Assembly: GCA_027340875.1 (NCBI GenBank)
Contig: DAIENX010000007.1
Coordinates: 96,001 to 160,000, forward strand
Direction: 5' to 3'
DNA length: 64,000 nucleotides
Source: Elusimicrobiota bacterium
Lineage (GTDB): Bacteria; Elusimicrobiota; Elusimicrobia; Elusimicrobiales; UBA9959
The notes below the pieces were generated by a model. The model made no database searches, had not been told where the DNA came from, and saw only the letters and a list, made by a program, of their open reading frames with translations. Both the position numbers and the translations under genes were made by a program. Of the stretch, positions 3,835 to 27,697 are shown one piece after another (the first letter of the stretch is position 1; each line of letters starts with the position of its first letter).

Positions 3835-3965
3835 GGCCGCCGCGGGGACGGAACGCAAAACACGGCGTCGGCCACACCGTGGCCGCGCCTCGACACTCGG
3901 CCTCGTCGCTTACGCAAGCCTCGGCCTCCGCGACGGTTTTGCTTATCCGCTCCCCGCGTCGACCT
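3835..3965 (-). repeat. Structured palindromic intergenic element, copy A (REP/MITE-like family)
   Basis: Long terminal stem CGCGGGGA..GCAAAAC / GTTTTGC..TCCCCGCG and internal hairpin GGCCACACCGTGGCC. Its reverse complement aligns with 27549-27697 and 4859-4992. Confidence 0.75.
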
Positions 3966-4114
3966 CTCCACCAATGCACAAATCACAATTGAAATCCGCA
4001 GTAATACTTATCGCAGAGGCGATTGCTAGGGATATAATCGGTTTGTGGTATTCTTAATGTTTTATCACATCTCGTATGATAAGCTCATACCAAAATTTGG
4101 CTGAGGACACTTTT

Positions 4115-4540
4115 ATGCGATTTTTATTAATTGGACTCTTGCTTTCATTATCGGGATGCAGTCGAATTGAATTTTATCGTACCTGGAACGGCACACAGCC
4201 TATACCAACTGAACGGGAACGAAACGAATACATTAGACAGAATACGACGTTACCTCAAGACATTAAAGAAAAGATTCTATCCGGCAAAGCTGCACAAGGC
4301 ATGACTGAGGCAGATGTCGTGGCCATTTTTGGCAAACCGTGCGGGCGCTATGAAACAGGAACCGGGTATACCCGGTGGGACTACAATTACAACGAAAATG
4401 GATTTATGTCCTCCGGGACGTGTTATAACGAAAGCAATCAAAGTGTTTATTTCAAAGAAACCAAAGTTGCCTTTGCTAATAAAAAAGACTTCCAGGATTT
4501 TCTGAAGGATGAAGAGGATAGGGAAAAAAACGAAAATTAA
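4115..4540 (+). CDS. AT-rich lipoprotein, SmpA/OmlA(BamE)-like domain; 5' half of a possibly frameshifted gene
   Basis: SD GAGGA, lipobox LSGC, motif ILSGKAAQGMTEADVVAIFGKP. Much lower GC than the flanks. Confidence 0.7.
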   Translation: MRFLLIGLLLSLSGCSRIEFYRTWNGTQPIPTERERNEYIRQNTTLPQDIKEKILSGKAAQGMTEADVVAIFGKPCGRYETGTGYTRWDYNYNENGFMSSGTCYNESNQSVYFKETKVAFANKKDFQDFLKDEEDREKNEN

Positions 4541-4769
4541 GAAGAAAAAAGAATACATAAAGCGAAAAGGGTTAGATAAAACCTCTGCGGACAACATCCT
4601 GAACGGGAAAGTATCTCTAGGAATGTCGAGCGAAGACGTTGAGATATCGTGGGGAAAACCCAGAGACATCAATCGCACTGTTGGCGCTTGGGGCGTGCAT
4701 GAACAATGGATTTACGGTGACACCTATCTCTACTTTGAGAATGGAAAATTAACTAGTTGGCAAGATTAA
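4509..4769 (+). CDS. AT-rich SmpA/OmlA-like domain ORF; likely the 3' half of the upstream lipoprotein (+1 frame)
   Basis: ILNGKVSLGMSSEDVEISWGKP..EQWIYG..YLYFENGKL repeats the upstream domain. Overlaps it across an A7 run at 4524-4530. Confidence 0.6.
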   Translation: MKRIGKKTKIKKKKEYIKRKGLDKTSADNILNGKVSLGMSSEDVEISWGKPRDINRTVGAWGVHEQWIYGDTYLYFENGKLTSWQD

Positions 4770-4858
4770 TTTAAACAACAATTCAATTGTTGTAAGTTAG
4801 CGTTTTATTATTGCGTGGTTATGCATAAGAGTCGCTGTGAAGTCACAAGCACTCAGGA

Positions 4859-4992
4859 GGGGCGGGCGGCGGTATGGGTCCGGCGGGCCGTCGCGGACCG
4901 AAGCCGCTTGCGCAGCGCGGCGAGGGAGTGACGAGGGGCGAGCACGGTGTGCGAGACCCCGTGCCCGACGGACCCATACTCCGACAAGCCCC
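4859..4992 (+). repeat. Structured palindromic intergenic element, copy B
   Basis: Stem GGTATGGGTCCGGCGGGC / GCCCGACGGACCCATACT. Inner sequence CCGTCGCGGA..GCTTGCG..GAGTG.CGAGG..CACGGTGTG..GAC.CCGTG is shared with the reverse complement of copy A. Confidence 0.7.
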
Positions 4993-5028
4993 GACTTCGC
5001 ATCTCGCGGCACTTGAGGACTGTTTTTT

Positions 5029-5724
5029 ATGGAAAAAGACAATGTGATAGAGACCAAAGGGGTCACGAAGACCTACCAGAGCGGGGAGGTGAAGGTGCAC
5101 GCGCTGCACCCGGTGGACCTCGTCATCGCCCGCGGCGAGTTCACCGCCATAGCCGGCCCCAGCGGCTCCGGCAAGACCACGCTCCTCAACATCATCAGCG
5201 GCCTCGACAACCCCAGCTCCGGCAGGATCCGCCTCGCCGGCCGCGAAATAAGCTCGATGAGCCAGTCCGAGCTCTCGGATTTCCGCCGCGACCACATAGG
5301 CTTCATCTTCCAGGCCTACAACCTCATACCCGTCCTCACCGTCGGCGAGAACATAGAGTACGTGATGCTGCTGCGCGGCGTGCCCGCCGGCGAGCGCGCC
5401 GACAGAGTAAGACGCATCCTCGACGAGGTAGGCCTCTCCGGCAAGCAGGGCCGCTTCCCGTCACAGCTTTCCGGCGGCCAGCAGCAGCGCGTCGCCATAG
5501 CCCGCGCGATGGTCTCCGGCCCGGACATCATCCTCGCCGACGAGCCCACCGCGAACCTCGACTCCGCCACCGGCGGCGCGCTGATGGACATGATGCGCGA
5601 GCTCAACGAGAAGCGCGGCATGACCTTCCTGTTCTCCACCCACGACAGAATGATAATGGACAAGTCCACGCGCCTGGTAACCCTTAAGGACGGCCGCGTG
5701 GAATCGGACACCGTTAAGAAATGA
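5029..5724 (+). CDS. ABC transporter ATP-binding protein (LolD/MacB-like)
   Basis: Walker A GPSGSGKT, signature LSGGQQQRV, Walker B ILADEPTANLD. Confidence 0.95.
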   Translation: MEKDNVIETKGVTKTYQSGEVKVHALHPVDLVIARGEFTAIAGPSGSGKTTLLNIISGLDNPSSGRIRLAGREISSMSQSELSDFRRDHIGFIFQAYNLIPVLTVGENIEYVMLLRGVPAGERADRVRRILDEVGLSGKQGRFPSQLSGGQQQRVAIARAMVSGPDIILADEPTANLDSATGGALMDMMRELNEKRGMTFLFSTHDRMIMDKSTRLVTLKDGRVESDTVKK

Positions 5725-6950
5725 GGAACCTTCTTGCGGCTCTGGCCCTGCTGCTGCCCGCCATCCCGGCTGGCGCGGCCGACCTGTCGCTCAAGGGTTT
5801 CCTCAAGACCTACCTGTATTCCACCGAGCCGGCCGCGGTGCGCGGCCTGCCCGGCCAGCCGGATGGCGCGTACGCCGCCAGCGAGACAAAGCTGCGGCTG
5901 AAGACCTACTGGGACAGTGGCGGTCCCCTTAAGGCCGAGGCCGCCTACGAGCTGATCTACGACTCCCGGGAAAAGGCACTGGCCGCCGCCAGGCCGTTAA
6001 CGGCCGGCTACGGCTACCGCGTCTCCGACCCCTCCCCCGTACTCGCTCCGGCCGCCGGAGGCGAGAGTTCCTCCGCCGCGCTGCTCCAGAACCTGGACCG
6101 GGCCTTCGTCACCTGGTCGCCGGCCGCTTTCGACCTGTACGCCGGCCGCCAGCCGCTGGCCTTCGGCTCCGGCCGCACCGTCAACCCCACGGACGTGCTG
6201 GCCCCTTACCCTTACGGCACCATAGACACCGAGGAGCGCCGCGGGGTGGACGCCCTCAGGCTCAAGCGGCCCCTTGGCGAGATGGGCGAGCTGGACGCCG
6301 GCTGGCTGCCGGGAAAGGACTGGTCCCGGAGCGATAGCGCGGCCTTCCTGCGGGCGCGGGACACCATCGGCCGGAACGACCTCACGGTCATAACCGCGGC
6401 CTTCCGCGGCAACCTGATGGCCGGCGGGGACCTGGAGCGCGACATAGGCGGCGCCACTTTCCGCGCCGAGGCGGCCCAGGTCTGGGCCGGCAGCTTACAG
6501 AACCGCCTGCCCGGCGACGACTTCTTCCGGCTGACCGCGGGAGCGGAGTACAACTTCCCCCTGCTGGGCGGCCTGGATTCCTGGCTGGAGTACCATTACA
6601 ACGGCGCCGGCAAGGACAAGCCGGCCGATTACCCCTCGCTGGCGGCCAGAACCGCCTACCGGGAGGCCAACGTCTACCTGCTGGGCAGGAACTACCTGTC
6701 CTGCGGGGCGGGGGCCCAGCTTTCCCCGCTGTTCTCGGCCTCAGCCGGCCTTATGGTCAACCTTGGGGACGGGTCCCTCTATGCCCTGCCCTCCGCGGAG
6801 TGGAACGCCGCCGAGAACCTATATCTCTCGGCGGGAGCGCTGCTGCCGTCCGGGCCGGGAGCCCGCCTCAGCGGCCTGGCCGCCCGCCCCGCCTCAGAGT
6901 TCGGGCTGTATGACAGGTCCCTCTACCTCTCCCTGAGGAAGTACTTCTAG
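5721..6950 (+). CDS. Putative outer membrane beta-barrel protein
   Basis: Signal peptide, LDRAFV..AGRQ..FG..NPTD motif, C-terminal LRKYF; last gene of the ABC operon. Confidence 0.7.
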   Translation: MRNLLAALALLLPAIPAGAADLSLKGFLKTYLYSTEPAAVRGLPGQPDGAYAASETKLRLKTYWDSGGPLKAEAAYELIYDSREKALAAARPLTAGYGYRVSDPSPVLAPAAGGESSSAALLQNLDRAFVTWSPAAFDLYAGRQPLAFGSGRTVNPTDVLAPYPYGTIDTEERRGVDALRLKRPLGEMGELDAGWLPGKDWSRSDSAAFLRARDTIGRNDLTVITAAFRGNLMAGGDLERDIGGATFRAEAAQVWAGSLQNRLPGDDFFRLTAGAEYNFPLLGGLDSWLEYHYNGAGKDKPADYPSLAARTAYREANVYLLGRNYLSCGAGAQLSPLFSASAGLMVNLGDGSLYALPSAEWNAAENLYLSAGALLPSGPGARLSGLAARPASEFGLYDRSLYLSLRKYF

Positions 6951-7079
6951 GGCCGCAGGCCGTTTTTCCGCGCTTTAGGGCCTTTATTTATTATAAAATA
7001 CAGGAATAGTGGCGGGACGCCCCCCAAAAAGGGCCTCCGGTCACAGGTTTTCATATTCAAATGTAAGGCAGGAAAGCTA

Positions 7080-7940
7080 ATGGCGAATAAAGTTCTGGCG
7101 GAAATAGGCGTGATCGGCGGTACCGGCCTGTACGCCATGCAGGAACTTAAGATCCTCCGGGAGATAAAGGTCAAAACCCCCTTCGGCGACCCCTCGGACA
7201 AGATAATCCTGGGCTCCATCTCCGGCATCAAGGTAGCCTTCCTCCCGCGCCACGGCCGCAAGCACCACCTGCTCCCGGGAGAGATAAACCAGCGCGCCAA
7301 CATGTGGGCGCTCAAGTCCATAGGCGTGAAGACCATCATCTCCGCCAGCGCGGTAGGCTCGCTCAAGGAAAAGCTGGCCCCCACCCATTTCGTCTTCCCC
7401 GACCAGTTCGTCGACAGGACCAAGGGCCGCCCCTCCACCTTCTTCGGCGGCGGCATAGTCGGCCACGTGCCCATGGCCGAGCCGTTCTGCATGGGCGTCT
7501 CCGACATGATATACAAGGAAGCCGTGAAACTGGGCATCAAGGCCCACAAGGGCGGTACCTATATCTGCATGGAGGGCCCCGGCTTCTCCACCAAGGCCGA
7601 GTCCGAATTCCATCGCAAGATGGGCTACGACATCATCGGCATGACGATGGCCACCGAGGCGAAGCTCGCCCGCGAGGCCGGCTTCCACTACGCTCCCGTC
7701 TCGCTGGTCACCGATTACGACTGCTGGAAGGAAGGCGAGGAAGTGGACCAGCACCAGGTCTCCGAGACCATGCACAAGAACATAGGCAATATCCGCCGCC
7801 TGCTGGTGAAGATACTGCCGCTGGTGGCCGAGGCCGGCTGCCGCAACGGCTGCCCGTCCTTCTCGAAGAACTCTTTGCTGACGCACCGGGAGAACTTCCC
7901 TCCGAAGACCTACAAGAAACTGAAGCTGATACTGGGATAA
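7080..7940 (+). CDS. mtnP: S-methyl-5'-thioadenosine phosphorylase
   Basis: IGVIGGTG, FLPRHGRKH, SAVGSL, MEGPGFSTKAES and VTDYDCW motifs. Confidence 0.92.
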   Translation: MANKVLAEIGVIGGTGLYAMQELKILREIKVKTPFGDPSDKIILGSISGIKVAFLPRHGRKHHLLPGEINQRANMWALKSIGVKTIISASAVGSLKEKLAPTHFVFPDQFVDRTKGRPSTFFGGGIVGHVPMAEPFCMGVSDMIYKEAVKLGIKAHKGGTYICMEGPGFSTKAESEFHRKMGYDIIGMTMATEAKLAREAGFHYAPVSLVTDYDCWKEGEEVDQHQVSETMHKNIGNIRRLLVKILPLVAEAGCRNGCPSFSKNSLLTHRENFPPKTYKKLKLILG

Positions 7941-7944
7941 GACA

Positions 7945-8385
7945 ATGGCCAAGAAGACAGCAGGGAAAAAAGAGCGCGGGAACTGGAAGCTGCGCCTGAT
8001 AGAGGCGGCCAAGTCGGCGCAGAAGAAGGCCTACTGCCCCTATTCCCGCTACCCCGTCGGCGCGGCGGTGCTGACCGATTCCGGCAGGCTCTACACCGGC
8101 TGCAACGTGGAGAACGCCTCGTTCGGGCTGGCGATGTGCGCGGAGCGGGTGGCCATCTTCAAGGCCGTCAGCCACGGCGACAAGAAGATCAAGGCCGTCT
8201 GCGTGGCGGCCAAGTCCGCCAAGCCCTGCGGCGCCTGCCGGCAGGTGATAATAGAGTTCGCCCCCAAGGACGCGGACATAATCTACGTGGACTGGTTCCC
8301 GATGGCCAAGAAGCAGAAAGTTACCTACACCAAGGCCGGCAAACTGCTGCCGCAGGCCTTCGACCCGTCGGAAGCGGGATTGTAA
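7945..8385 (+). CDS. cdd: Cytidine deaminase
   Basis: AYCPYSRYPVGAA, GCNVENASFG, CAERVA and PCGACRQ motifs. Confidence 0.95.
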   Translation: MAKKTAGKKERGNWKLRLIEAAKSAQKKAYCPYSRYPVGAAVLTDSGRLYTGCNVENASFGLAMCAERVAIFKAVSHGDKKIKAVCVAAKSAKPCGACRQVIIEFAPKDADIIYVDWFPMAKKQKVTYTKAGKLLPQAFDPSEAGL

Positions 8386-8405
8386 AATTTACTGGAGGTG
8401 CATTT

Positions 8406-8783
8406 ATGGACGTCAAGACCCTTACTAAGATCACCAAGTGGATGGAATCCACCGACCTAGAGGAGATAACCTGGAGGAGCGGGGACGACAAGATCTCGCT
8501 GAAGCTCAACAACAACCCGGAGCACAACGCCTCGATCTCCTCGTCGATGGAGCCCGTGCTCTCCCCTTCCATAGGCATATTCCGCTTCGCCCGCCCTGGC
8601 AAGACCAACCATCTGAAGGAGGGCTCCTCCATGAAGTCCGGCCAGGAGCTCGGCGTGGTGGAGGTGGGCAAGGAATTCAAGAGCGTGCAGGCGCCCGCGA
8701 ACGGCCTGCTGAAGATCATCTCGATCTCCGACGGCAAGCCGGTGGAATACGGCCAGCCGTTGTTCTTCTTCGAGCCCAAGTAA
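8406..8783 (+). CDS. accB: Biotin carboxyl carrier protein-like (degenerate biotinylation motif)
   Basis: SD GGAGG; SPSIGIF and DGKPVEYGQPLF match BCCP; EAMKM replaced by EVGKE; accC lies two genes downstream. Confidence 0.7.
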   Translation: MDVKTLTKITKWMESTDLEEITWRSGDDKISLKLNNNPEHNASISSSMEPVLSPSIGIFRFARPGKTNHLKEGSSMKSGQELGVVEVGKEFKSVQAPANGLLKIISISDGKPVEYGQPLFFFEPK

Positions 8784-8834
8784 GCTACGCCCACCGCCCC
8801 GGCCCCCCCGCGGCCGGGCGCCGGGCGCCCATAC

Positions 8835-10526
8835 ATGACCTCCAAGCCATCGACAATCAAGTGTCCGAAGTGCGGCAGCCAGCCGAACATCATCACCGAC
8901 ACCTGCATGAACTGCGGCTCGAAGCTGGAGAAGATCTGCGGCGAGTGCGGCGCAGCCGTGGCGGTGGAGAAGAACTACTGCGACAAATGCGGCTCGCTGC
9001 TGGCCCTGCAGCCGCCGCCAAGGCCCGATGCCCCGGGAACCCCTCCGCCGCCGCCCGCTCCGGAAAAAAGGGGATTCAGCCTGGAGATGGAATCCATCCA
9101 GGACACCGTATCCGAGAGGGCGACCTCCTTCCGCCGCAAGGTGGACACCGGGCCCGCTCCGGCAGGTCCGGCCGCCCCGCCGCCGCCCGCTTCCAAACCG
9201 GCCGCCTCGGGACGCTCGTCCAAGGGAGGAGGCAGCGTGCTCAGCCCGGATTCCGCCCGCCTGATGAAACAGGCGCCTCTGCCGCGGCCGGTCAGGCCCC
9301 CCATGCTCAAGAAAGTGACCGGCGCGCTGGTCACGGTCCTGCTGCTGGGCGTGCTGAGCGCCATACTCTACATGATAGCCGCGCCGTCGCTGCCAAAGCT
9401 GCGCCTGATAATGACGGCCAAGGCCTACCTCTCCGACATCTCAGAGGGCAAGTTCGAGAAGGCCTACTCGCTGCTCTCGACCAATTCCAAGGCGGCCTGC
9501 TCGCTAGAGGAATACCTCAAGAACAGCTCCGACTACTACGCTAAGGCCCCCGCCTGGCAGTTCAAGGACGTAGAGGTCTTCGCAATGACCAGCGATTCGG
9601 CGATGATCCGCTACATGCTCAAGGAGGGGAACGGGGAGTGGAAGTACGACTTCATCTCCTTCGTGCGCGAGAACAACCGCTGGACCCGCCCCTACATCTG
9701 GGTGCTGTTCCAGCCCATAGACGACGCGCTTAAGCGCCACGACTTTCCGCAGGCCCTGTTCCTGGCGCAGAAACTTTACCTTACCGATCCGGTGGATCCC
9801 CGCACCTCCGGCTATCTCTGCGACGCCGAGTTCTTCATGGGCCTGCACGAGAAGGCCGTGGATTCCTGTAAGCGCATGATAGACAACGCGGCCATCTACC
9901 CGGTTGGCTATACCAGCGCGGAACTGTTCCAGTACAACTCCCATTACGCCGACAGCCTGCGCTTCCTGCAGCGCGACCGGGTGGCCCTCCAGGAGTACGA
10001 CAAGCTGCTCAAATGGCCCGGCGCCACCTCCGACCAGCTCTGCCCGGTGCACCTGAACCGCGCCGATTCATTCGTCTACCTGAAGGAGTACGACCGCGCC
10101 CTCAGGGAACTGATGGACGCCTCCAGCCTCTGCACGCAGAGCCCGGCCAAGGAGTCCACGCGGACCAGGCTTTACTATATGAGCGGTTCCGCCGGCCCGG
10201 CAGCCGTGGCCTTCGCCCAAAAATCCCGCTTCCAGCCCGGCCAGCCGCCGATAGGAGAGGCGCGCAGCAAGGAGCTGGCGGATCTGAAGGCAAAGCTGGG
10301 CCCGAGGAACGCCAGGCTCCTGCCCAAGGACCAGTGGATGGCCGTGCACGTGGCGGGCCCCGAATACCGCGTCTTCCTGCGCCAGGAGGGCATCAACCTC
10401 AGGACGAAGAAGTCCGAGACGCAGACCCTTTACACTTTCCTGGTAAACCTCTGGACCGGCAGGGCGACCGTGGAGAAGGCCCCCGGCCAGGATAAGCCCG
10501 GAGAAGTATCTCCGGACGGCAAATAG
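8835..10526 (+). CDS. Hypothetical membrane protein: double zinc ribbon, Pro-rich linker, TM, NTF2-like and TPR-like regions
   Basis: Four CxxC motifs at the N-terminus, one TM segment, helical repeats. Confidence 0.7.
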   Translation: MTSKPSTIKCPKCGSQPNIITDTCMNCGSKLEKICGECGAAVAVEKNYCDKCGSLLALQPPPRPDAPGTPPPPPAPEKRGFSLEMESIQDTVSERATSFRRKVDTGPAPAGPAAPPPPASKPAASGRSSKGGGSVLSPDSARLMKQAPLPRPVRPPMLKKVTGALVTVLLLGVLSAILYMIAAPSLPKLRLIMTAKAYLSDISEGKFEKAYSLLSTNSKAACSLEEYLKNSSDYYAKAPAWQFKDVEVFAMTSDSAMIRYMLKEGNGEWKYDFISFVRENNRWTRPYIWVLFQPIDDALKRHDFPQALFLAQKLYLTDPVDPRTSGYLCDAEFFMGLHEKAVDSCKRMIDNAAIYPVGYTSAELFQYNSHYADSLRFLQRDRVALQEYDKLLKWPGATSDQLCPVHLNRADSFVYLKEYDRALRELMDASSLCTQSPAKESTRTRLYYMSGSAGPAAVAFAQKSRFQPGQPPIGEARSKELADLKAKLGPRNARLLPKDQWMAVHVAGPEYRVFLRQEGINLRTKKSETQTLYTFLVNLWTGRATVEKAPGQDKPGEVSPDGK

Positions 10527-10543
10527 TTGATCTTGGAGGCAAT

Positions 10544-11902
10544 ATGTTCAAGAAAGTACTGATCGCCAACCGCGGCGAGATAGCGGTACGGGTGATACGC
10601 ACCCTGCGCGAGATGGGCGTAAGCTCGGTGGCGGTGTACTCCGAGGCCGACCGCTCCTCCCTGCACGTCCGGCTGGCGGACGAGGCGGTCTGCATAGGCC
10701 CGGCCATAGCCAAGGAGAGCTACCTCAGCATACCGGCCATCATCTCCGCCGCCACGGTCACCGGCGCCGACGCCATACACCCCGGCTACGGCTTCCTGTC
10801 CGAGAACGCGGACTTCTCCGCCGCCTGCCGCGACAACGGTCTCGCGTTCATCGGGCCGTCCCCCAAGTCCATACAGCAGCTGGGCCACAAGGCCGAGGCC
10901 CGCAAGGTGGCCATGAAGGCCGGCGTGCCCGTGACCCCGGGCACCAAAGAATGCGTGGGCAGGAACTTCAAGAGCGAGGCCGAGAAGATCGGCTTCCCGC
11001 TGATGATCAAGGCAGCCGCCGGCGGCGGCGGCAAGGGCATCCGCATCGTGCGCGAGGAGTCCCAGCTGGAGAAGGAAATGACGATGGCCTCCAGCGAGGC
11101 CAAGGCCGCCTTCGGCAACGGCGAGGTCTATTTCGAGAAGTACATCGAGCTGCCGCGCCACATAGAAGTGCAGTTCGCGCGCGACACGCACGGCCACACG
11201 CTGGCCTTCCCGGAGCGCGACTGCTCCATACAGCGCCGTCATCAGAAGCTGGTGGAGGAATCCCCCTCGCCTGCGGTGGACAAGAAACTGCGCGAGAAGC
11301 TGGAGGAGGCCGCCGTTAAGCTGGCCAACGCCGCCAACTACGTGGGCGTGGGCACCGTGGAATTCCTGCTGACGCAGACCGGCGAGTTCTATTTCATGGA
11401 GGTCAACACGCGCCTGCAGGTCGAGCACCCGGTCACCGAGTTCATCACCGGCTTCGACCTGGTGCGCGAGCAGCTGCTGGCCGCCTCCGGGGAGAGCCTC
11501 TCCTACACGGCCTCCCACAGCGTGCCGTACCGCGGCCACGCGATAGAGCACCGCGTCAACGCCGAGGATTTCTCCAGGAACTTCCTGCCGTCCGTGGGCC
11601 GGGTAGAGGAGTGGCTCGTCCCCGGCGGCCCCGGCATACGGGTGGACACGCACGTCTATTCCGGCTACAACCTCCCTATCTATTACGACAGCATGCTGGC
11701 CAAACTGATAGTCTGGGACCAGACCCGCGAGCTGGCGGTCGCCAGGTCGGCCAGGGCCCTGAGGGACTTCAAGGTCTCCGGCATAAAGACCACGATAGAC
11801 GCCCACCGCCTGATAGTGCAGAGCGAGGGCTTCAAGACCGGCAAGACCGACACCGGCTTCATGGAACGCCTGCTCGCTCCCGCGGAGGCCGCCGGCAAGT
11901 AG
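10544..11902 (+). CDS. accC: Acetyl-CoA carboxylase biotin carboxylase subunit
   Basis: KKVLIANRGEIA, HPGYGFLSEN, GGGGKGIR, ERDCSIQRRHQK and EVNTRLQVEHPVTE motifs. Confidence 0.97.
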   Translation: MFKKVLIANRGEIAVRVIRTLREMGVSSVAVYSEADRSSLHVRLADEAVCIGPAIAKESYLSIPAIISAATVTGADAIHPGYGFLSENADFSAACRDNGLAFIGPSPKSIQQLGHKAEARKVAMKAGVPVTPGTKECVGRNFKSEAEKIGFPLMIKAAAGGGGKGIRIVREESQLEKEMTMASSEAKAAFGNGEVYFEKYIELPRHIEVQFARDTHGHTLAFPERDCSIQRRHQKLVEESPSPAVDKKLREKLEEAAVKLANAANYVGVGTVEFLLTQTGEFYFMEVNTRLQVEHPVTEFITGFDLVREQLLAASGESLSYTASHSVPYRGHAIEHRVNAEDFSRNFLPSVGRVEEWLVPGGPGIRVDTHVYSGYNLPIYYDSMLAKLIVWDQTRELAVARSARALRDFKVSGIKTTIDAHRLIVQSEGFKTGKTDTGFMERLLAPAEAAGK

Positions 11903-12370: not shown

Positions 12371-12427
12371 CCCCCATTTTTTCCCCTAAAGCTCCCCCCA
12401 ATTTAATAAAATATGACGATATTACCT

Positions 12428-13636: not shown

Positions 13637-13648
13637 ACGGGCCCAGCC

Positions 13649-16049: not shown

Positions 16050-16056
16050 GCGGACC

Positions 16057-17280: not shown

Positions 17281-17283
17281 CGC

Positions 17284-18081: not shown

Positions 18082-18084
18082 ACC

Positions 18085-18654: not shown

Positions 18655-18696
18655 GGCCGGCCGGACGCCTCGCGCGCCGTACCGCCGCCTCCATTT

Positions 18697-19995
18697 ATGC
18701 ATAAACTTTACTACCCGGAAGACAAGCTCCCGCTTTCGCGCCTCGTGCCAATGGGTATGCAGCACGTGGTCGCGATGTTCGGCGCCACGGTGCTGGCCCC
18801 GATACTGATGGGGTTCAACCCGCAGACGGCCATCTTTTTCTCCGGTGTCGGCACGCTGATCTTCATAGCGGCCACCCGCGCCAAGGTCCCGAGCTACCTC
18901 GGCTCCTCCTTCGCTTTTATAGGTCCGGTGCTGGCCGTGACCGGCGGCAGCCCGGCCAACATCCCCTACGCGCTCTCCGGCATAGCCGCGGCCGCGGTGC
19001 TCTACGCTGCGGCCGCGGCCGTCACGATGCGCTGGGGCTCCTCCTGGATAGACAGGTTGATGCCGCCAATAGTCACCGGCGCGGTGGTGGCCATCATCGG
19101 CCTGAACCTTTCCTCGTCGGCGGTCTCCAACTTCATAAACAGCGACTTCGTTCTCGGCGGCCGGGCCGACGCGCTGAACCTGCTGGTCGCCGCCGTGACC
19201 TTCGCCGTGGCGGCCGCGGTCTCGCTGTACCTGCGCGGCTTCCTGCGCCTGCTGCCGATACTGACCGGCGTGGTGGCCGGCTACGCCCTCGCCTTCTTCC
19301 TCGGCCTGATAGGCCTGGAGCAGCTGGCCGCCGTGCGTTCCGCGCCGTGGCTGGGCCTGCCGCCCTTCACCGCGCCGGTGTTCAGCTGGCAGGCCGTGCT
19401 GGTGATAGCCCCTGTCTTCGTGGTGCTGGTGGCCGAGAACAAGGGCCACCTCGAGGCCATAGGCGGCTACATGAAGCGCGACATGAACAAACACCTGGGC
19501 CGCGCCTACCTCGGCGACGCGCTGGCGTCGTTCGTGTCCGCCATGGGCGGCGGCACGCCGCAGACCACCTACGCCGAGAACATGGGCGTGATGGCCATCA
19601 CGCGCGTCTTCAGCGTCTACAATTTCATCGCCGCGGCCTGCATAGCCCTGCTGCTCGGGCTCTGCCCTAAGTTCGGCGCGGTGATACAGTCCATCCCGGC
19701 GCCGGTGCTGGGCGGCGTGACCGTGATACTGTACGGCCTGATAGCGCTGATGGGCGTTAAGATCTGGCTGGACGCCAAGGTGGACTTCTGCTCGCACAAG
19801 AACCTGATAATAGCGGGCTCCTCCATCATCCTCGCCACCGGCCTCGGCGTGAAGGGTTTCACCGTGGCCGGGATAAATATAGCCGGCATAGCCTTCGGCA
19901 CCGTGCTGGCCGTGCTGCTGCACCTGCTGTTCTCGTTCGGCGGCGAGGACCCGCAGGACGACGCCGCATGCGACTGCTCCCCGGAGGTGAAATAG
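18697..19995 (+). CDS. uraA: NCS2 family nucleobase (uracil/xanthine) permease
   Basis: QHVVAMFGATVLAP, YLGSSFAF and TTYAENMGV motifs. Confidence 0.85.
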   Translation: MHKLYYPEDKLPLSRLVPMGMQHVVAMFGATVLAPILMGFNPQTAIFFSGVGTLIFIAATRAKVPSYLGSSFAFIGPVLAVTGGSPANIPYALSGIAAAAVLYAAAAAVTMRWGSSWIDRLMPPIVTGAVVAIIGLNLSSSAVSNFINSDFVLGGRADALNLLVAAVTFAVAAAVSLYLRGFLRLLPILTGVVAGYALAFFLGLIGLEQLAAVRSAPWLGLPPFTAPVFSWQAVLVIAPVFVVLVAENKGHLEAIGGYMKRDMNKHLGRAYLGDALASFVSAMGGGTPQTTYAENMGVMAITRVFSVYNFIAAACIALLLGLCPKFGAVIQSIPAPVLGGVTVILYGLIALMGVKIWLDAKVDFCSHKNLIIAGSSIILATGLGVKGFTVAGINIAGIAFGTVLAVLLHLLFSFGGEDPQDDAACDCSPEVK

Positions 19996-19996
19996 C

Positions 19997-21370
19997 ATGC
20001 CGTCAGGCTTCTTCTCGCTCTACCGTCCCGCCCCGTTCGCCAAGCCGCTCCCGGAAAACGAAGTCCCCGGCGCCTACCGCCGCCTGCGCTGGCAGGTGAT
20101 GCTGTCGATCTTCGCCGGCTATACTTTCTTCTACTTCGTCCGCAACAGCTTCTCGCTGGCCAAACCCTACCTGATAAAGCTTTATGGCATGAGCAAGGGC
20201 GACGTCGGCTTCATCGCCACCGGCCTCGCGGTGGCCTACGGCCTGAGCAAGTTCATAATGGGCAACGTCTCGGACCGCTCCAACCCGCGCTATTTCATGG
20301 CCACCGGGCTGCTGGCCTCCGGCCTGGTCAACCTGATCTTCCCCAGCTTCGCCGGTTCGGTGACGGTTATGTTCGCGCTGTGGTTCGTCAACGGCTGGGC
20401 GCAGGGCATGGGCTGGCCCCCCTGCGCGCGCACGCTGACGCACTGGTTCAGCGACGGGGAGCGCGGCAGGATCTTCGCCGTCTGGAACCTGGCGCACAAC
20501 CTGGGCGGCGGGCTGGTGGGCCCCATAGTGAACGGCGCGCTGGCGCTGGCGGCCGTCATGGCGGCAGGGGCCGCTCTCGGCGGCGGCCTCACGCTGAAGC
20601 TGGTCTTCTACGTGCCGGCGCTGCTGGCCATAGGCATGGGCCTGCTGCTGCTTGTTTTCCTGCGCGACACGCCGCAGTCCTGCGGCCTGCCCTCCATAGA
20701 GGATCACAAGAACGACCACCCCGACACCGGCGTGGCCGATCCGGAGAAGGAGCTGACCGCGCGGGAGATCCTCTTCAATTTCGTCCTGAACAACAAGCCG
20801 CTGTGGATAATAGCCGTGGCCAACATCTTCATCTACGTCGTGCGCTACGGCGTGCTCAACTGGGCGCCCACTTATCTCACCACCGTAAAAGCCTGCCCGG
20901 CCGACACCTCGCGCTGGCTGTTCTTCCTCTATGAAGTGGCGGGCATACCCGGGACGCTGCTGGCCGGCTGGGCGTCGGACCGTCTCTTCGGCGGCCGCCG
21001 CAGCCCGGTCTCGTTCATCTTCATGGTGCTGGTCACAGCCGCCGTCTGGGTGTACTGGAAGAACCCGGCCGGGCATTTCCTGGTGGACTCGGCCTGCCTG
21101 TTCACCATCGGCTTCCTGATCTACGGGCCCGTGATGCTGATAGGCGTAAGCGCGGTGGACCTGGTGCCCAAGAAGGCCGCCGGCACCGCGGCCGGTTTCA
21201 CCGGCTTCTTCGGCTATGTCTTCGGCGCCGTCATCGCCGAGCTGGGGCTCGGGAAGATAGTGGACCGCTGGGGCTGGGACGGCGGCTTCGCGCTGCTGCT
21301 GGCCGCCTGCGTCATCTCTATGGCGCTGTTCGCGGCCACCTGGAAGATGCACCACAAGGCGGACAGGTAG
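19997..21370 (+). CDS. glpT: Glycerol-3-phosphate:Pi antiporter (OPA/MFS)
   Basis: SDRSNPRYF, QGMGWPPC, WNLAHNLGGG, RDTPQSCGLP, YGPVMLIG and PKKAAGTAAGFTG motifs. Confidence 0.85.
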   Translation: MPSGFFSLYRPAPFAKPLPENEVPGAYRRLRWQVMLSIFAGYTFFYFVRNSFSLAKPYLIKLYGMSKGDVGFIATGLAVAYGLSKFIMGNVSDRSNPRYFMATGLLASGLVNLIFPSFAGSVTVMFALWFVNGWAQGMGWPPCARTLTHWFSDGERGRIFAVWNLAHNLGGGLVGPIVNGALALAAVMAAGAALGGGLTLKLVFYVPALLAIGMGLLLLVFLRDTPQSCGLPSIEDHKNDHPDTGVADPEKELTAREILFNFVLNNKPLWIIAVANIFIYVVRYGVLNWAPTYLTTVKACPADTSRWLFFLYEVAGIPGTLLAGWASDRLFGGRRSPVSFIFMVLVTAAVWVYWKNPAGHFLVDSACLFTIGFLIYGPVMLIGVSAVDLVPKKAAGTAAGFTGFFGYVFGAVIAELGLGKIVDRWGWDGGFALLLAACVISMALFAATWKMHHKADR

Positions 21371-21372
21371 CC

Positions 21373-22110
21373 ATGACCCACCTGCTGCTCTGCTGCGCGG
21401 CGGCGCTGCTCTCCGCGCTCCCCGCCGCGGCTGCCGGGCAGGCCGCCGTACATTTCAAAACGTCCGACGGCTGCTCCCTAGAGGCTTTTTACCTGGCCCC
21501 CTCCAGCGGCGCTTACGTTTTCGTCAACGTGCACGGCCTCGGCTCCGACAAGAACGAATGGGCCCCGTTCCAGAAGGAACTGGAGAAACGGGGCATTGGC
21601 TATTTGTCGCTGGACCTGCGGGGCCACGGGAAGAGCAGGGCTTGCCGGGGAAAGGCCGCCGACTACAGGAATTTCTCGGCTGAGGATTGGGCGGCCGCTT
21701 CCAAGGATATCGAGGCGGCCTCCGCCTGGCTTGAGAAAAAAGGCCTGCCGGCCGGCCGCCAGATATTCTGCGGCGCCAGCGTAGGCGCCAACCTGGCGTT
21801 GAAAGCCGCGGCCGAGGGAAAGACGAAGCCTGCGGCGCTGGTGCTGCTGTCGGCGGGGCTGGAGTACGCCGGCGTCAGGGCCGACGCTTATCTGCCGCGC
21901 GCGCCGAAGCGCGTGCTGCTGCTGGCCTCCGAGAACGATCCCTACGCCTGGCGCAGCGCGCTGCTGTTCAGCGAGCGGGCCGGCGGATACGGGCTGAAGC
22001 TTTCCGCGCTGGACGGCGGCGCCGGACACGGCGTGAACATGTTCAAGACCCCGGGGGTCGCGGAAAAGGTCATAGACTGGGCCAAGAGCACGGAGACCGC
22101 GCAACGATGA
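21373..22110 (+). CDS. Secreted alpha/beta hydrolase
   Basis: Signal peptide, VHGLG, DLRGHGKS, nucleophile elbow GASVG, GHG. Confidence 0.85.
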   Translation: MTHLLLCCAAALLSALPAAAAGQAAVHFKTSDGCSLEAFYLAPSSGAYVFVNVHGLGSDKNEWAPFQKELEKRGIGYLSLDLRGHGKSRACRGKAADYRNFSAEDWAAASKDIEAASAWLEKKGLPAGRQIFCGASVGANLALKAAAEGKTKPAALVLLSAGLEYAGVRADAYLPRAPKRVLLLASENDPYAWRSALLFSERAGGYGLKLSALDGGAGHGVNMFKTPGVAEKVIDWAKSTETAQR

Positions 22111-22964
22111 AAGAGAACAAGCACATAGGTAGGGACCTTGAGGACCCGGAGCGTCGCTTCGACCGCCTGACCCGCCTGGTGGGGCCGGAGGCGCTGCAGA
22201 AGCTGCGCCGCTCCCACGTGATGGTGATCGGGCTGGGGGGCGTAGGCTCCTGGGCCGCAGAGGGCGTGACGCGCTCCGCCGTCGGCCGCGTCACGGTGAT
22301 AGATTTCGACACCGTCTGCATCAGGAACTTCAACAGGCAGCTCCAGGCCCTGAGCGGCACCGTGGGCAGGGAGAAGGCCCCGCTCCTGGCCGAGCGCCTG
22401 CGCCTGGTAAACCCGGAGGCCAGGATAGACGCCATAACCAAGCCTTTCAGCGAGGAGACCTGCGGGGAGCTGATGCTGGAGCGGCCGGACTTCGTGATAG
22501 ACGCCATCGACCACATCACCTCCAAGTGCTACCTGATAAACTACTGCCGCGAGCGCGGCATACCGCTGATAGTTTCCACCGGCTCCGGCGGCCGCTTCGA
22601 CCCCACGAAGGTGCGCGTGACGGACCTGGGGCTCACCGAGCTGGATCCACTGGCCCGCGCCGTGCGCAAGATCCTGCGCGACAAGTACTCCTTCCCCAGG
22701 AAGGGGAAGTTCGGAGTGAGGGCCGTCTGCACGATAGAGCCGCCGCGCCGACCGCACGAAGGCGTGGAACTGTCCGACTGCAAGGCCGGCTGCCTCTGCC
22801 CGCAGGGCGAGAACCCGTTCCAGTGCTGCACCAAGAAGAGCGTGGTGCTGGGCACGGCCTGTTTCCTAACCTCGGTGTTCGGGATGACCTGCGCCGCGGA
22901 AGCGGTCAGGCATATCTGCGAGGGTCCGGCCAAGCCGGAGCCCCCGGCCTCTCACCTGGTCTAG
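22107..22964 (+). CDS. tcdA: tRNA threonylcarbamoyladenosine dehydratase (ThiF family)
   Basis: GLGGVGSWAAE, NFNRQ, IDAID..KC.LI and DPLARAVRK motifs. Confidence 0.85.
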   Translation: MKENKHIGRDLEDPERRFDRLTRLVGPEALQKLRRSHVMVIGLGGVGSWAAEGVTRSAVGRVTVIDFDTVCIRNFNRQLQALSGTVGREKAPLLAERLRLVNPEARIDAITKPFSEETCGELMLERPDFVIDAIDHITSKCYLINYCRERGIPLIVSTGSGGRFDPTKVRVTDLGLTELDPLARAVRKILRDKYSFPRKGKFGVRAVCTIEPPRRPHEGVELSDCKAGCLCPQGENPFQCCTKKSVVLGTACFLTSVFGMTCAAEAVRHICEGPAKPEPPASHLV

Positions 22965-22968
22965 AAGT

Positions 22969-23712
22969 TCAGCGCTTTCCGGAAAGGAACCTGGCGGCAT
23001 TGGCGACGGAGAGTTCCGCCATGTCTTCGGCGGAGCGCCCCAGTACCGCGGCCGATATCTCCACCACCTCCGCCACCCCGGCCGGCCCCGACCGCCAGCC
23101 GGGAGCGTCGCCTTCCGGAGACTCGGTCTCGAAGAGCAGCCTCTCGGGCGGCACCGCCGCCAGGGCCGCCTTCAGCTTCTCTCGCCTGGGGTCCTTCAGC
23201 TCCCCGCCGAAGGAAAAATACCCGCCGAGCTCCGCGAAGGCCTTCACAATCTCTGGCGAGCCCCCGTAGGCGTGCAGCATGAAACACGACAGCCCGGCAG
23301 CGCTCAGCAGCTCCAGCAACCGCCCCCAGCTTTTGACGCAGTGGATCACCGCCGGGCGGCCGAACTGTCGGGCCAGCTCCAGCTGGGCCAGGAAGTCCCT
23401 CTCCTGCCCAGCCGCGCCCTTCGCCCCGTCCAGGCCTATTTCTCCCACGCAGGCGGCCGGCACCCTGCGCAGGAACTCCTCCAGGCGGTACTGCCAGCCA
23501 TCCTCGGCGCTGAACCACGGGTGGAGGCCGAAGGCCGGGACCACTCCCGGATATCTGCCGGACAGCTCGAGCACCTTGCCCCAGTCCTCCGGGCTGGTGC
23601 CGCAGCAGAGCATGCCGGCAACGCCCGCCGAGGAGGCCGCCGCCATGGCCGCGGCCTCCTCGGCGTCGGCGGCGTAGTTCTGCAGGTGGTTGTGGGCGTC
23701 GAAGTACTTCAT
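22969..23712 (-). CDS. TatD family hydrolase
   Basis: DAHNH, FGLHPW, VGEIGLD, IHCVK and LLFETESP motifs. Confidence 0.88.
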   Translation of the reverse strand: MKYFDAHNHLQNYAADAEEAAAMAAASSAGVAGMLCCGTSPEDWGKVLELSGRYPGVVPAFGLHPWFSAEDGWQYRLEEFLRRVPAACVGEIGLDGAKGAAGQERDFLAQLELARQFGRPAVIHCVKSWGRLLELLSAAGLSCFMLHAYGGSPEIVKAFAELGGYFSFGGELKDPRREKLKAALAAVPPERLLFETESPEGDAPGWRSGPAGVAEVVEISAAVLGRSAEDMAELSVANAARFLSGKR

Positions 23713-24854
23713 TTCTTCCCCTGCTTCGTATAGCCGAAGTACATATTGATCTTTCCGGATATGCCGGGGGCGGGCTTGAAGGAATGCTCCCTGGGGTATT
23801 CCATCGCCGGACTGATCTCGCCGAACATCCAGCCGTTGTAAAGGTTGCGCCGGTAGGCCAGCACCACGGCGTAGAGCTCGGCCCTGTTGTACGGCACCGT
23901 GACCGAATGCAGCTGCAGGGCCAGTCCGACGGAATCCAGCCTGCCCACCTGCTTCACCACGGCCACCGACTCGAAGATGTCGATCTTCCTGGCCAGCGTG
24001 GTCTTCTCCGCGCTGGAGTTTATCGAGAGGGTCGCCCTCCTGGGAAGGGCGCGGGAGAAATAAACGCCTCCGGAAAGTTCCAGCCACGGGTCGGAGAACC
24101 AGCCGGCCTGCGTGAACACTATCGAGCGCCAGGCGCCCCAGAAATCGGCCTGCGCGCCAACCCGGAACTTGGCGAAGATCCTGTAGATCCGGCTTCTGGA
24201 GAGCATGAGCCTGCTACCCACGTGCAGGTCCTGCCTGAAGTGGCGGCCGGAGAACAGGCTGTACTTGCCGCCCAGCGTAGTGCCCTCGGAAGGGGTCTGG
24301 CCGCGCGCTATGCGCTCCTCGGAGGCCGACACAGAACCGTCCTCCGCCGGGGCGTGCTCTATGATCAGCTTGAGCCTGTGCAGGGTACTGGGCATATCTA
24401 TGCGCATGTCTGCCCGCGGCTCGTTCTTCAGCGGCATGTAGCGCCCCACCACCGACCTAAAGCTCAGATTCATGGAGGTTTTGTTAGCGGAAGTCGCCTC
24501 CTGGCCGGAGATCAGTTTGTCTATGCCGGTGAAAAGGGAATTGAAGATCGACAGCCCCGGGCTGACCTCGTCGAGGAACAGCACCGGCCGGTGCGTATCG
24601 CTGGAAAGCTCAACTTCCGCCGGGACGGTGGAAACTTCGAGTCCGGACGGCGCTCCCGAAGAAAGCGCCGGCGCCGCCGGCGCCGGAAGGTCCTCCAGCC
24701 CGGCGCCAGACACGGAGACGGTGGAGATCTCCGCGGTCGAAGCGGCGTCTCCGGGAAAGGCCTCGTCCCGGGCCCTCGCCGGTCCGGGCAGGACGGCGGC
24801 CAGCAGCGCGGTCAGCGCTAAGAGCGTCGCATGGTTAGGGCGGGATCCTTTCAT
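23709..24854 (-). CDS. Hypothetical exported, probably outer membrane beta-barrel protein
   Basis: Signal peptide and alternating amphipathic strands in the C-terminal half; overlaps both neighbours. Confidence 0.6.
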   Translation of the reverse strand: MKGSRPNHATLLALTALLAAVLPGPARARDEAFPGDAASTAEISTVSVSGAGLEDLPAPAAPALSSGAPSGLEVSTVPAEVELSSDTHRPVLFLDEVSPGLSIFNSLFTGIDKLISGQEATSANKTSMNLSFRSVVGRYMPLKNEPRADMRIDMPSTLHRLKLIIEHAPAEDGSVSASEERIARGQTPSEGTTLGGKYSLFSGRHFRQDLHVGSRLMLSRSRIYRIFAKFRVGAQADFWGAWRSIVFTQAGWFSDPWLELSGGVYFSRALPRRATLSINSSAEKTTLARKIDIFESVAVVKQVGRLDSVGLALQLHSVTVPYNRAELYAVVLAYRRNLYNGWMFGEISPAMEYPREHSFKPAPGISGKINMYFGYTKQGKK

Positions 24855-27424
24855 CAGTCCACGGTTATGGATTTGCTGACGTTCTTGGGCGAGTCGGGGT
24901 GCACGCCGTGGTCCTGTATGCCGAGGCGGTCCAGGAAGTCCATCTTGCGCACGCTCATCTCCATCGCCAGCAGCTGCAGCGCCACCGACGACGTGAAGAA
25001 CACCAGCAGGTCGTCTCCGGTCCTGGGCAGCGCCACGTAGCCGTGGCGGTAGGTCTTGGAGTACATGGAAGGCACGCTCTTCTGCGCGGCCTCGCGCAGC
25101 AGCCTGTCCTCCTCGGCCAGCACGTAAATATTGGCGCCGCGTATCTTGTGCGTGTTTATCTGCGAGATGGTCAGGTTCACGTCGCGCGAGTTGGGACCGG
25201 TGACGAACACCAACGGGTAGTTCGTGTACATGCTCTCGAAGAAGTTGTGCTTTTTGAAGATATCGGAGAACAGCTCCGCCTCGGCCAGACTGAGGCCGGC
25301 CGGCTTGCGGTCGAAGAAGGCGTAGCCGGAAACGGCGTGGAAGACGCGGGACAGGCTTTCCGGAGCCAGGCTCTTGCCGCCGCGGCCCACGGCGTACTTT
25401 ATCATGTCGGCGAACTTGTCGGTCAGGGCGCCCACGCCCTCCATGCCGAAGATCGTGTTCACTCCGAGTATGGTATTGGGGCCGTGCTTGAACTCCGGGG
25501 ACTCGAAGCCCTCGGTGTGGTTGAGCACAACCTCGCGCACCTTGAGGGCGCCCTCTCGCGCTATGCCCTGCATGCCGGTGGCAAGAATATGCACGCTGGG
25601 CTCCAGATAGAGGTCCTGGGCGGCCTGCTGCACGGCGTCGCGCGTGTTGTTGATGGTCTCCTCTATCAGCTCCGGCACCCGGTAGAGGTTGTCGGCGTAC
25701 TTCCTCAGCCCGGACGAGCGCGCCATGTCCCGGTCCTCCGCGGCCAGCCTCTCGCCCAGCCGGAGGGCCAGTAGGTAGAGGATAAGCAGCTGGTTGACGA
25801 AACTCTTCGTAGCGGGCACGGCTATCTCCGGGCCGCAGTAAAGCGGGATGCAGACATCCGATTTCTCCAGCGCTATCGTGGAGTTGACGTTGTTCACTAT
25901 GTTCAGGAACGAGACCTTCCGGCCCGAGGCCTTCACCTGGTTGAGCACGTCTATCAGGTCCTTTGTCTCGCCGCTCTGGCTGATGCCGATGACGACGTCC
26001 CCGTCGCGCACGGAGCTAAGGCACTGCGCGCGGAAATCCCCCGGCAGGCAGGCCGTGACGGCCGTGCCCGCCATGCGGTTAAAGAAAACGGCAGCGCACC
26101 GGGCCGCGTTGTACGAGGTGCCACAGGCCACGAAATAGGCGGCGCGCCCTTTCCTCCGGCAGGAGGCGAGCCGCGCGCAGAACTCCCGTACCCGGGAGCG
26201 GATGTCCTCTATTTCGTCCACCATGAACAGGGCGTCAGCGAACTTTATCGATTGGCCGCATTCGGCGGAGCCGCACAGGGAGCGCAGCTCCACGAAGAAG
26301 TCCGCCATCGAGGACTCCGGCGCCATGGAGGCCAGCGGCAGGCGGCAGGCACGGGCATACTCGAGGGCTTTCTTCATAGACCGGCAGCCGAAGAAGGAAG
26401 CGGCCTCTTTCTTGAAGACAGCCGCGTCCGTGATGGCGGCCAGCCGCGTCACGCGGGACTTCAGGTCCTTAACGAAGGGCTTGTCCTTGCGGGCGGCCTG
26501 GCGGGCCAGATCGGTGAGCGGGGAGCGGTCGGCGAAATAGGCCAGGACCTTGGAGGCCGCGGCGGACTCGCTGAAGATCTCCTGCTCCATGAAATAACGG
26601 AACGGCTTCCGGAGGCCGGTCTCCTCGACGCGCAGGTGACTGCGCAGTTTTTCCTTCTTGATGGGCCGGCCGGTGCGCAGGCTGAAGAACTCCGCCTTCT
26701 GCGGCGTGTACAGCGCGAACTCGTCCTCCTTGATGGGGTAGAGCATCTTGGTCATCGACAGCACGCTCGCGAGGTCCGACGAGGCTATTGTGAACGGGCC
26801 GTGCGCGTCGTCCACGCCGGCGCCCATGTAGAGGCTGCTGCCGGCCTTTATGCAGGCCATCAGCTCGGTGACCGGGTCCACCACCACGGCGGCGAAGGAA
26901 CCCGTGGTCTTTTTGGCCGCGGCGAGTATCGCTTTCTTCAGCGCGTCGTGGCGGGCCTTCCTGTTCCTGTGGTCCTTGAGCCTTTTAAGCTCTATCGCGA
27001 AATAATGCTCCACGGTGTGCACCAGCATCTCGCCGTCGTTGTCGCTCTTCACGTCGTGGCCGGTGGAGACCAGCCATTCCTTCAGCTGGTCGCAGTTGGT
27101 GATGTTGCCGTTATGGGCGCCGTAGAGATGGGTGTGGCAGCGCGCGTCGTGCGGCTGGGCGTTCTCCTTCGTGACCACTCCGAACGTGGCCCAGCGCACC
27201 TGGCCGCAGAAGAGCTTTCCGGAGAGGCGGTCTATGCCCAGCTTCCTGGTTATTACACTGGGCGCGCCCACGTCCTTCTTGAGCGTGACGCGGCCGGCGG
27301 AATCCTGTATCAGCGCGCCGGTGGAGTCGTAGCCGCGGTACTCCAGCATCCGCAGCAGGCGCGAAGCCTCCACCCCGAGGTCTTCCCTGTCCTTAGCGCA
27401 AGTTAAGCCTATCACTCCGCACAT
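24854..27424 (-). CDS. glmS: Glutamine-fructose-6-phosphate transaminase, elongated variant (856 aa)
   Basis: MCG start, EYRGYDS, RWAT, HNG, SQSGETKD, GPEIAVPATKSF, EGALK, EFKHGP and PKNVSKSITVD motifs. Confidence 0.88.
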   Translation of the reverse strand: MCGVIGLTCAKDREDLGVEASRLLRMLEYRGYDSTGALIQDSAGRVTLKKDVGAPSVITRKLGIDRLSGKLFCGQVRWATFGVVTKENAQPHDARCHTHLYGAHNGNITNCDQLKEWLVSTGHDVKSDNDGEMLVHTVEHYFAIELKRLKDHRNRKARHDALKKAILAAAKKTTGSFAAVVVDPVTELMACIKAGSSLYMGAGVDDAHGPFTIASSDLASVLSMTKMLYPIKEDEFALYTPQKAEFFSLRTGRPIKKEKLRSHLRVEETGLRKPFRYFMEQEIFSESAAASKVLAYFADRSPLTDLARQAARKDKPFVKDLKSRVTRLAAITDAAVFKKEAASFFGCRSMKKALEYARACRLPLASMAPESSMADFFVELRSLCGSAECGQSIKFADALFMVDEIEDIRSRVREFCARLASCRRKGRAAYFVACGTSYNAARCAAVFFNRMAGTAVTACLPGDFRAQCLSSVRDGDVVIGISQSGETKDLIDVLNQVKASGRKVSFLNIVNNVNSTIALEKSDVCIPLYCGPEIAVPATKSFVNQLLILYLLALRLGERLAAEDRDMARSSGLRKYADNLYRVPELIEETINNTRDAVQQAAQDLYLEPSVHILATGMQGIAREGALKVREVVLNHTEGFESPEFKHGPNTILGVNTIFGMEGVGALTDKFADMIKYAVGRGGKSLAPESLSRVFHAVSGYAFFDRKPAGLSLAEAELFSDIFKKHNFFESMYTNYPLVFVTGPNSRDVNLTISQINTHKIRGANIYVLAEEDRLLREAAQKSVPSMYSKTYRHGYVALPRTGDDLLVFFTSSVALQLLAMEMSVRKMDFLDRLGIQDHGVHPDSPKNVSKSITVD

Positions 27425-27548
27425 GCAAGCACCTCGCCCTCAGATTGACGACAATAAATAATAGCATTATCCTCGCGCCAGGTGCCCCCGGGATAATTTG
27501 TTAATATCTTATTTAGTTCTTTCAGGGATCGCGTGGGCACACGCCAGC

Positions 27549-27697
27549 GGGCGACGCGGGGACCGGGTTAGCAAAACCTTCATGCGTGGAGCGAAGCGAC
27601 ACTTTCTTGCGCGAGGCTTGCACCGCGCCGAGCCCGAATGATGAGCGAGGCCACGGTGTGGCCGAACGCGTTTTGCGTTCCGGTCCACGTGGCGCCC
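27549..27697 (+). repeat. Structured palindromic intergenic element, copy C
   Basis: CGACGCGGGGACCGGGTTAGCAAAACC...GGCCACGGTGTGGCCGA...GTTTTGCGTTCCG aligns with the reverse complement of 3835-3965. Confidence 0.75.

Follow-up and report, generated by a model that had tools for sequence, protein, structure and literature searches.

A dispersed, Y-shaped intergenic repeat family in Elusimicrobiota with back-to-back pairs and foreign DNA at its 5' foot

We describe a family of structured intergenic repeats, three copies of which (A, B and C) lie in a 64,000-nucleotide stretch of an Elusimicrobiota bacterium genome (Elusimicrobiales, UBA9959; assembly GCA_027340875.1, contig DAIENX010000007.1, positions 96,001 to 160,000), hereafter the window. 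All three were confirmed as true members of an uncatalogued, dispersed, Y-shaped intergenic repeat family with a unit of ~135 bases. Across the family we observed a strand-specific branched fold, turnover between relatives, pairs in a fixed orientation, foreign DNA lying on one side and, in one lineage, the copying of pairs as units, and we consider the repeat to be probably a REPIN-like, non-autonomous mobile element that is handled as folded single-stranded DNA by a trans-acting nuclease.

The repeat family and its fold

Copy A (3835..3969, minus strand) touches with its 3' end the stop codon of an ABC permease gene and has a GGAG foot at 3969-3966, and copy B (4856..4992, plus strand) starts with the same foot; each consists of a rod and a three-way junction. 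Copy B is followed by a 3' tail (4993..5009, plus strand) that is conserved in B-type copies and common to many copies in relatives. Copy C (27547..27697, plus strand) is single, lies between divergent glmS-like and glycerophosphodiester phosphodiesterase genes, and holds an inserted hairpin module of 25 nt (27586..27610, plus strand) that other copies hold elsewhere. The copies are thus where an initial annotation, made from the sequence alone, had placed them, although their ends required adjustment, with A reaching ~3969 and B covering 4856-4992 plus the tail to 5009. A structure-aware model trained on a set including A and B gave exactly three matches in the window (3849-3948 minus, 4876-4975 plus and 27590-27684 plus). 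DNA folding z-scores relative to shuffled sequences were -6.3, -3.2 and -3.25 for A, B and C on these strands versus -4.6, -2.1 and -1.3 on the opposite strands, in agreement with the strands originally assigned. The outer arms common to A and C, the core common to A and B, and the change of flanking pairing from GGCG/CGCC to GGGG/CCCC were all found as first described. The annotated CAC-GGT-GTG hairpin is present (tip of helix P3 in copy A, 3873..3881, minus strand) and its GGT loop is nearly invariant genome-wide, but the CAC/GTG stem varies too.

One strand, which we refer to as the GA strand, forms the rod, comprising the GGAG foot, a variable arm of 25-30 nt, helix P1 and the three-way junction. 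In helix P2 there are a TT bulge, a GC-loop-GC tip and tandem G·A pairs whose position shifts from one subtype to another; P3 contains an invariant bulged A and a C-GGT-G tip. Some copies, C among them, have additional hairpin modules, which occupy several different positions. In an alignment of 35 copies, 21 of 33 pairs have two-sided changes, and the covariation score of 0.317 (for a structure drawn from the same 35 copies) exceeds that of shuffled alignments (0.125, reached in 0 of 500) and of slid controls (<=0.093), a comparison that is no probability because the copies are related. Conservation of structure over sequence, as originally proposed, is therefore borne out. RNAalifold recovered just 14 inner pairs from the wide alignment because the arms do not align; mean ungapped identity between the arms of different copies is 0.38. 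Nevertheless, cognate arms form much stronger duplexes than crossed arms (-24.9 versus -12.2 kcal/mol), and an arm's own partner is the best one in 34 of 41 cases. Of 62 mismatches in the arms, 43 are A·G, and G·T accounts for just 27 of 777 pairs under RNA parameters. The GA strand is the better folded one in 66 of 69 copies as DNA and in 64 of 69 as RNA. Of 74 P2 loops parsed in the source genome, 44 are purine-N-A triloops, and the tetraloop GTAA is commonest in relatives; GNA triloops are a stable fold of DNA but not of RNA.

The source genome (2.8 Mb, 92% complete, 5.5% contamination) contains 79 copies according to an iterated hidden Markov model, which found none in the reversed genome, so that the further copies expected from the initial annotation do exist; a few more with large inserts escaped the model. 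Near-duplicate loci in this genome (C73/C108, C6/C51 and C30/C81 in G000) suggest the presence of two strains in the assembly, and copy counts are slightly inflated as a result. Based on a crude gene caller, 77 of the 79 copies are intergenic, adjoining housekeeping genes of every kind. Relative to these genes the GA strand is sense in 21 cases, antisense in 28, in a convergent or divergent setting in 22 and at contig ends in eight, showing no preference for the transcribed strand, and this mixed orientation argues against a role requiring the GA strand in mRNA. No replication-strand bias was detected relative to local GC skew (20/19/16/11), a test made weak by short contigs.

Every one of the 24 genomes of the genus has copies, as do 61 of 79 others in the family, where five genera have them and eight do not. 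None of 16 genomes from other families of the order carries copies; the structured model did recover a diverged homologue with the same junction in a genome of another family (G136). A match in G140 was discarded, being weak, apparently coding and not recovered by the structured model. Among the GTDB pattern matches listed, 78 of 80 record titles are Elusimicrobia or unnamed bacteria; one short Armatimonadota contig holds a true copy and one Kocuria match is due to chance. A search of viral contigs with one pattern gave no match. Rfam covariance models had no match in the window at gathering score and none over the element in four loci at E-values up to 5, consistent with the initial view that this is not a named family. 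At title and abstract level, a literature search found no description of the repeat; supplements of PMC11893778 and PMC3733652 list repeat-bearing genomes. In genus g9, near-identical copies occur at unrelated loci (L095, L153-L158 and L221), several of them inside an additional GC stem that differs at each locus, a pattern that suggests either a recent burst or insertion into terminator-like hairpins.

Pairs, turnover and polar junctions

Copies close to one another have their 5' feet facing each other (back-to-back) almost without exception. Ratios of back-to-back to face-to-face pairs are 9:0 in the source genome, 16:0 in G024, 12:0 in G020, 19:1 in metagenome loci and 12:0 in GTDB loci, sets that may overlap. 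Most copies in the source genome are single. In G024 and its kin, 14 pairs (10 from G024) link two arm types across spacers of 44-47 nt, and these spacers are homologous (score 21.6 versus 3.6 ± 0.6 when shuffled) between unrelated outer flanks, four of the 14 representing one orthologous site. Judged from these alignments, pair and spacer have been copied as a unit in this lineage. A spacer of 180 nt recurs at five loci of G098 (L561, L565, L568, L569 and L570), where the pair sits in a ~600-bp unit with outer inverted repeats and a decayed, gene-like spacer. We rejected the idea that this spacer is the remnant of an autonomous element, as no longer version was found in 79 genomes and no GIY similarity was detected. 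A pair on contig C10 of G136 was likewise rejected as a REPtron since there is no gene between its copies.

The occupancy of sites turns over between relatives. At the A/B site, G008 has 8 bp and no copy, and G019 and two contigs of G023 have other copies or a second repeat family. One of the latter contigs has copy A at 98% identity, which ends at window position 3968, in the foot, and beyond this point both the spacer and the partner copy are different. The DNA between A and B (3970..4855) is missing at this site in four syntenic loci of three relatives. We compared 19 element clusters of G023 with the source genome, in which 16 had a syntenic match, comprising 11 with a different copy, three with the same allele, one with the second repeat family and one empty site. 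The site 3' of gltX is occupied in 20 of 30 genomes, by many subtypes, and at one and the same site the orientation can flip between relatives. Possible target-site repeats of 5-7 nt were seen at two multi-event sites.

Two further observations relate to these sites. The gltX loci (L371-L400) comprise two gltX types in one genus, ten of them being ~40% identical to the gene of the source genome, and most genes of the divergent type precede the same downstream gene, suggesting replacement in place. The second repeat family is rod-shaped with a GGGGGCCCCGC core and is present at 13 loci (14 hits) in the source genome, including a window copy at 35745-35990 (G000:C65:131789-131941) interrupted by an insert; the arms of this family are paired and variable, it occupies the same intergenic sites, and its 3' tail is sometimes the same as that of the first family.

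Foreign DNA adjoins the repeat on one side. Among 295 de-duplicated copies with both flanks present, flank GC is below 0.47 on the 5' side of 22 and on the 3' side of none, and at a cut-off of 0.50 the counts are 27 and 5, respectively. The low-GC DNA mostly begins within a few bases of the foot. Five of 32 low-GC gene clusters in the source genome touch a copy, always at its 5' side; of all genes, 135 of 2566 touch one. Eight back-to-back pairs are more than 330 nt apart, four of which enclose DNA with a GC content of 0.39-0.45 and four of 0.51-0.62. We scanned 11 low-GC neighbours, and three could be assigned to families, namely AbiTii, STAND-like NTPase and ORF6N; the diverged homologue in another family also brackets an AbiTii gene. 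In the window itself, back-to-back copies A and B enclose 0.89 kb of low-GC DNA (0.40; 3970..4855) with two open reading frames. The first (4115..4540, plus strand; 141 aa, or 154 from an upstream ATG) encodes a lipoprotein-like product with a weak BamE-type domain match below cut-off, and the second (4509..4769, plus strand; 86 aa) gave no match in a family search. A short AT-rich palindrome past the second frame (4768-4803) ends in a GTTAG core and faintly resembles an attC end.

A probable mobile element and its rivals

Back-to-back pairing together with foreign DNA at one end leads us to propose that the repeat likely moves and likely helps gene import. The proposal in the initial annotation of a mobile or recombination DNA element fits the strand-neutral placement, turnover and polar junctions, but its attribution to RAYT or IS200/605 enzymes is unsupported. 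The model that we favour starts from the fold shown by covariation, in which the GA strand forms a long rod closed off by a three-way junction and has a bulged A and tandem G·A pairs that slide; a trans-acting enzyme would recognize this folded single-stranded DNA and cut it at the foot of the rod or just 5' of it. Three junction patterns are observed at the foot, and their presumed chemistry would be a break that serves as the joining point for a second copy in opposite orientation, as the point where a resident copy is overwritten, or as the joining point for foreign DNA. Copies A and B with their cargo likely represent a pair loaded with two foreign genes, since pair and spacer can be copied as a unit. 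More tentatively, the rod may be what an undescribed system of single-strand recombination recognizes, with back-to-back copies forming a chromosomal platform for gene capture and exchange whose cargo could be moved by a host-encoded enzyme. It is possible, if doubtful, that the lipoprotein, AbiTii, STAND NTPase and ORF6N genes joined at the foot were acquired through such a platform, the class of enzyme being one not yet linked to repeats. Should the foot prove to be an entry point for foreign genes, this uncultured lineage would have a way of gaining genes through the repeat, and the family might yield a new structure-specific single-strand nuclease or recombinase; otherwise, it is just another lineage-specific repeat.

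Several results weigh against a mobile, gene-importing element. The number of independent polar events is below 22 because some pairs share one cargo, just five of the 32 low-GC clusters adjoin a copy at all, and a single instance of the A/B cargo was found across the genome and the loci examined. No clear target-site duplication was seen, with none at the ends of G024 pairs or in most comparisons of filled and empty sites. G048 shows no back-to-back pair among its 50 pattern matches, the G098 pair may be a passenger of a longer unit, and the GTAA loop of the relatives suits RNA equally well. No enzyme stood out among the neighbours in the source genome or in 159 further loci, which were read by eye or BLAST and in few cases by profile, no recurring nuclease was found near ~200 further copies, and no transposition intermediate was seen in contigs. 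The contigs of four DNA sequencing runs had no joint at A or B among the joints listed.

One alternative is that the element acts as RNA, either as part of an mRNA or as a small RNA, and is spread by an RNA step or kept for mRNA stability. Better folding of the GA strand under RNA parameters, the common GNRA-type GTAA loops, the many copies that end at a stop codon 17-31 nt beyond the core, and the occupation of some sites throughout the genus are in keeping with this. However, the transcribed strand is not preferred, orientation flips at one site, G·U pairs are few, the prevailing triloops of the source genome are of the DNA-stable kind, and a search of this 92%-complete genome found no reverse transcriptase, so that we disfavour a non-coding RNA and rate it as unlikely. 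Maintenance of a fragile hairpin by gene conversion and homologous exchange of intergenic alleles between cells, with no enzyme of its own, would account for the mosaic nature of cores, arms and inserted modules, for the repeated use of a few sites, and for replacements that often take the whole intergenic spacer without duplication. It leaves unexplained the near-identical copies at unrelated loci of G158, the spacers common to ten G024 loci, the fixed pair orientation and the conserved unpaired bases, and we hold it to be very improbable. A link with tRNA-Gly, the last 9-12 nt of which are complementary to the 5' end of some copies, was set aside because the variation is explained by pairing within the rod; only two of 44 well-placed tRNA or tmRNA calls have a copy within 300 nt.

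If the favoured reading of a DNA element mobilized in trans is adopted, two known enzyme types come into question as the partner. One is the small UPF0213-type GIY-YIG protein encoded beside tRNA-Gln, usually between it and glmU, which might cut single strands 5' of the hairpin in the manner of SsnA of Neisseria. The two small GIY-YIG genes of the source genome (one locus, probably in two strains) each have a copy at the 5' side; a copy is upstream in 12 of 29 loci of the genus, two loci have outward-facing copies on both sides, and copies adjoin the loci of genus g9 too. All five element-bearing genera of the family have orthologues of at least 59% identity, and its eight element-free genera have none; the apparent absence from five genomes carries no information, as their assemblies lack or break the glmU region. 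This co-occurrence by genus probably reflects one clade, however, and a partnership that seemed strong at first failed against gltX as control, a site that is occupied more often (20 of 30; guaB less, 4 of 29). Moreover, no copy lies by the gene in g6 (0/7), g8 (0/3) or g70 (0/2), other repeat families fill the same flanks, the protein matches UPF0213 structures and not the Ssn type (cd10448), and the closest homologue in G136 (47%) has no adjoining copy. As a positive control, the Ssn-like GIY-YIG gene of G136 (L548, G136:C27:31727-31942) is ringed by CGTC repeats and not by the Y-shaped element. We consider this partner rather unlikely. Mobilization by Y1 HUH proteins (RAYT/TIRYT or IS200 TnpA), the copies being very large REP-like units, appears quite improbable. 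The GGAG at the foot of intact copies resembles a REP guide position, doublets and site overwriting match REPIN behaviour (PMC3116915; 10.1101/2024.10.14.618302), and 67 of 80 family genomes contain Y1_Tnp genes. Yet none of 49 Y1_Tnp loci fetched from relatives (of 218 matches) has a copy, no match to Y1_Tnp was obtained in the element-rich genomes G021, G048, G003 and G056, and the GGAG could alternatively be one half of a tandem G·A pair. The RAYT of the source genome was rejected as partner, as it has unrelated palindromes of its own, three GGTACC palindromes flanking the RAYT-like gene (L001:1422-1444 and 2114-2180; G000:C111).

Comparison with known systems

The way in which structured bacterial repeats spread in the absence of an adjoining transposase is an open question for ERIC, bcr1 and, until recently, CGTC repeats. 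In the present family the fold is defined, the polar junction is mapped and pairs with cargo occur naturally, and the search for an enzyme therefore has a concrete substrate and a predicted cut site. Like REP, REPIN and BIME repeats with their RAYT proteins, its members are extragenic, high-copy, lineage-restricted hairpins, and as with REPINs, sites are overwritten by other types and, in G024-type pairs, inverted doublets are copied as units (PMC3116915; 10.1101/2024.10.14.618302). A REP, however, is a palindrome of 20-40 bp with a terminal GT(A/G)G, whereas here the unit is ~135 nt with a three-way junction and the foot is GGAG after a variable base. A RAYT gene is flanked by its repeat, a configuration seen neither in the 49 fetched Y1_Tnp loci nor in the locus of the source genome. 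Unlike in REPINs, the fold is made within each member and not between the two partners, and pairs can enclose whole genes; the doublet feature is confined to the G024-type pairs, with most copies of the source genome single and G048 devoid of pairs.

The NTS/SRM repeats and their Ssn nucleases are similar in being directional, strand-specific intergenic hairpins, and the cut that SsnA makes in single strands upstream of the hairpin has the polarity of the junctions seen here (PMC11893778). They differ in that the CGTC/SRM sequence does not occur in our alignment, the fold here is much larger and branched, and the nearby GIY-YIG protein is of UPF0213 type, with an occupancy not above that of gltX. 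The bcr1 repeats of the Bacillus cereus group and ERIC are similar in length (~130-155 nt), in forming long or branched hairpins with compensatory changes, in having non-conserved positions and in lacking a known mobilizer (PMC3184786). Among the differences, bcr1 has 5-bp direct repeats and is transcribed, and ERIC has terminal repeats with a TA duplication; neither set of repeats was clearly seen here, the comparison being by description and not by sequence. MITEs have conserved terminal inverted repeats shared with an insertion sequence, whereas here the arms pair within a copy and differ between copies, and we saw no insertion sequence with ends like the copy arms. Integron attC sites resemble the repeat in their strand-specific single-stranded fold, in the variability of their sequence, in their bulged bases and in the one-sided position of foreign genes. 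By contrast, cassette arrays are absent here, genes have no fixed orientation and it is the interior of the element that is conserved; copies are scattered, alone or in pairs, and no integrase was recognized among their neighbours when these were read by eye. The family lacks defining features of REP and Ssn/SRM repeats and of MITEs (PMC3733652, PMC6006769 and PMC3184786). It is uncatalogued and belongs to none of the four families REP, Ssn/SRM, MITE and bcr1.

Recognizable mobile elements adjoin some copies. A transposase-like gene (IS256-like by eye) replaces the missing 5' half of one copy, as if inserted into it (G000:C105:51-1480). At two further loci (L482 and L509), one copy has the end of a group II intron ~80 nt to its 5' side, and another is followed on its 3' side by an ISL3 transposase.

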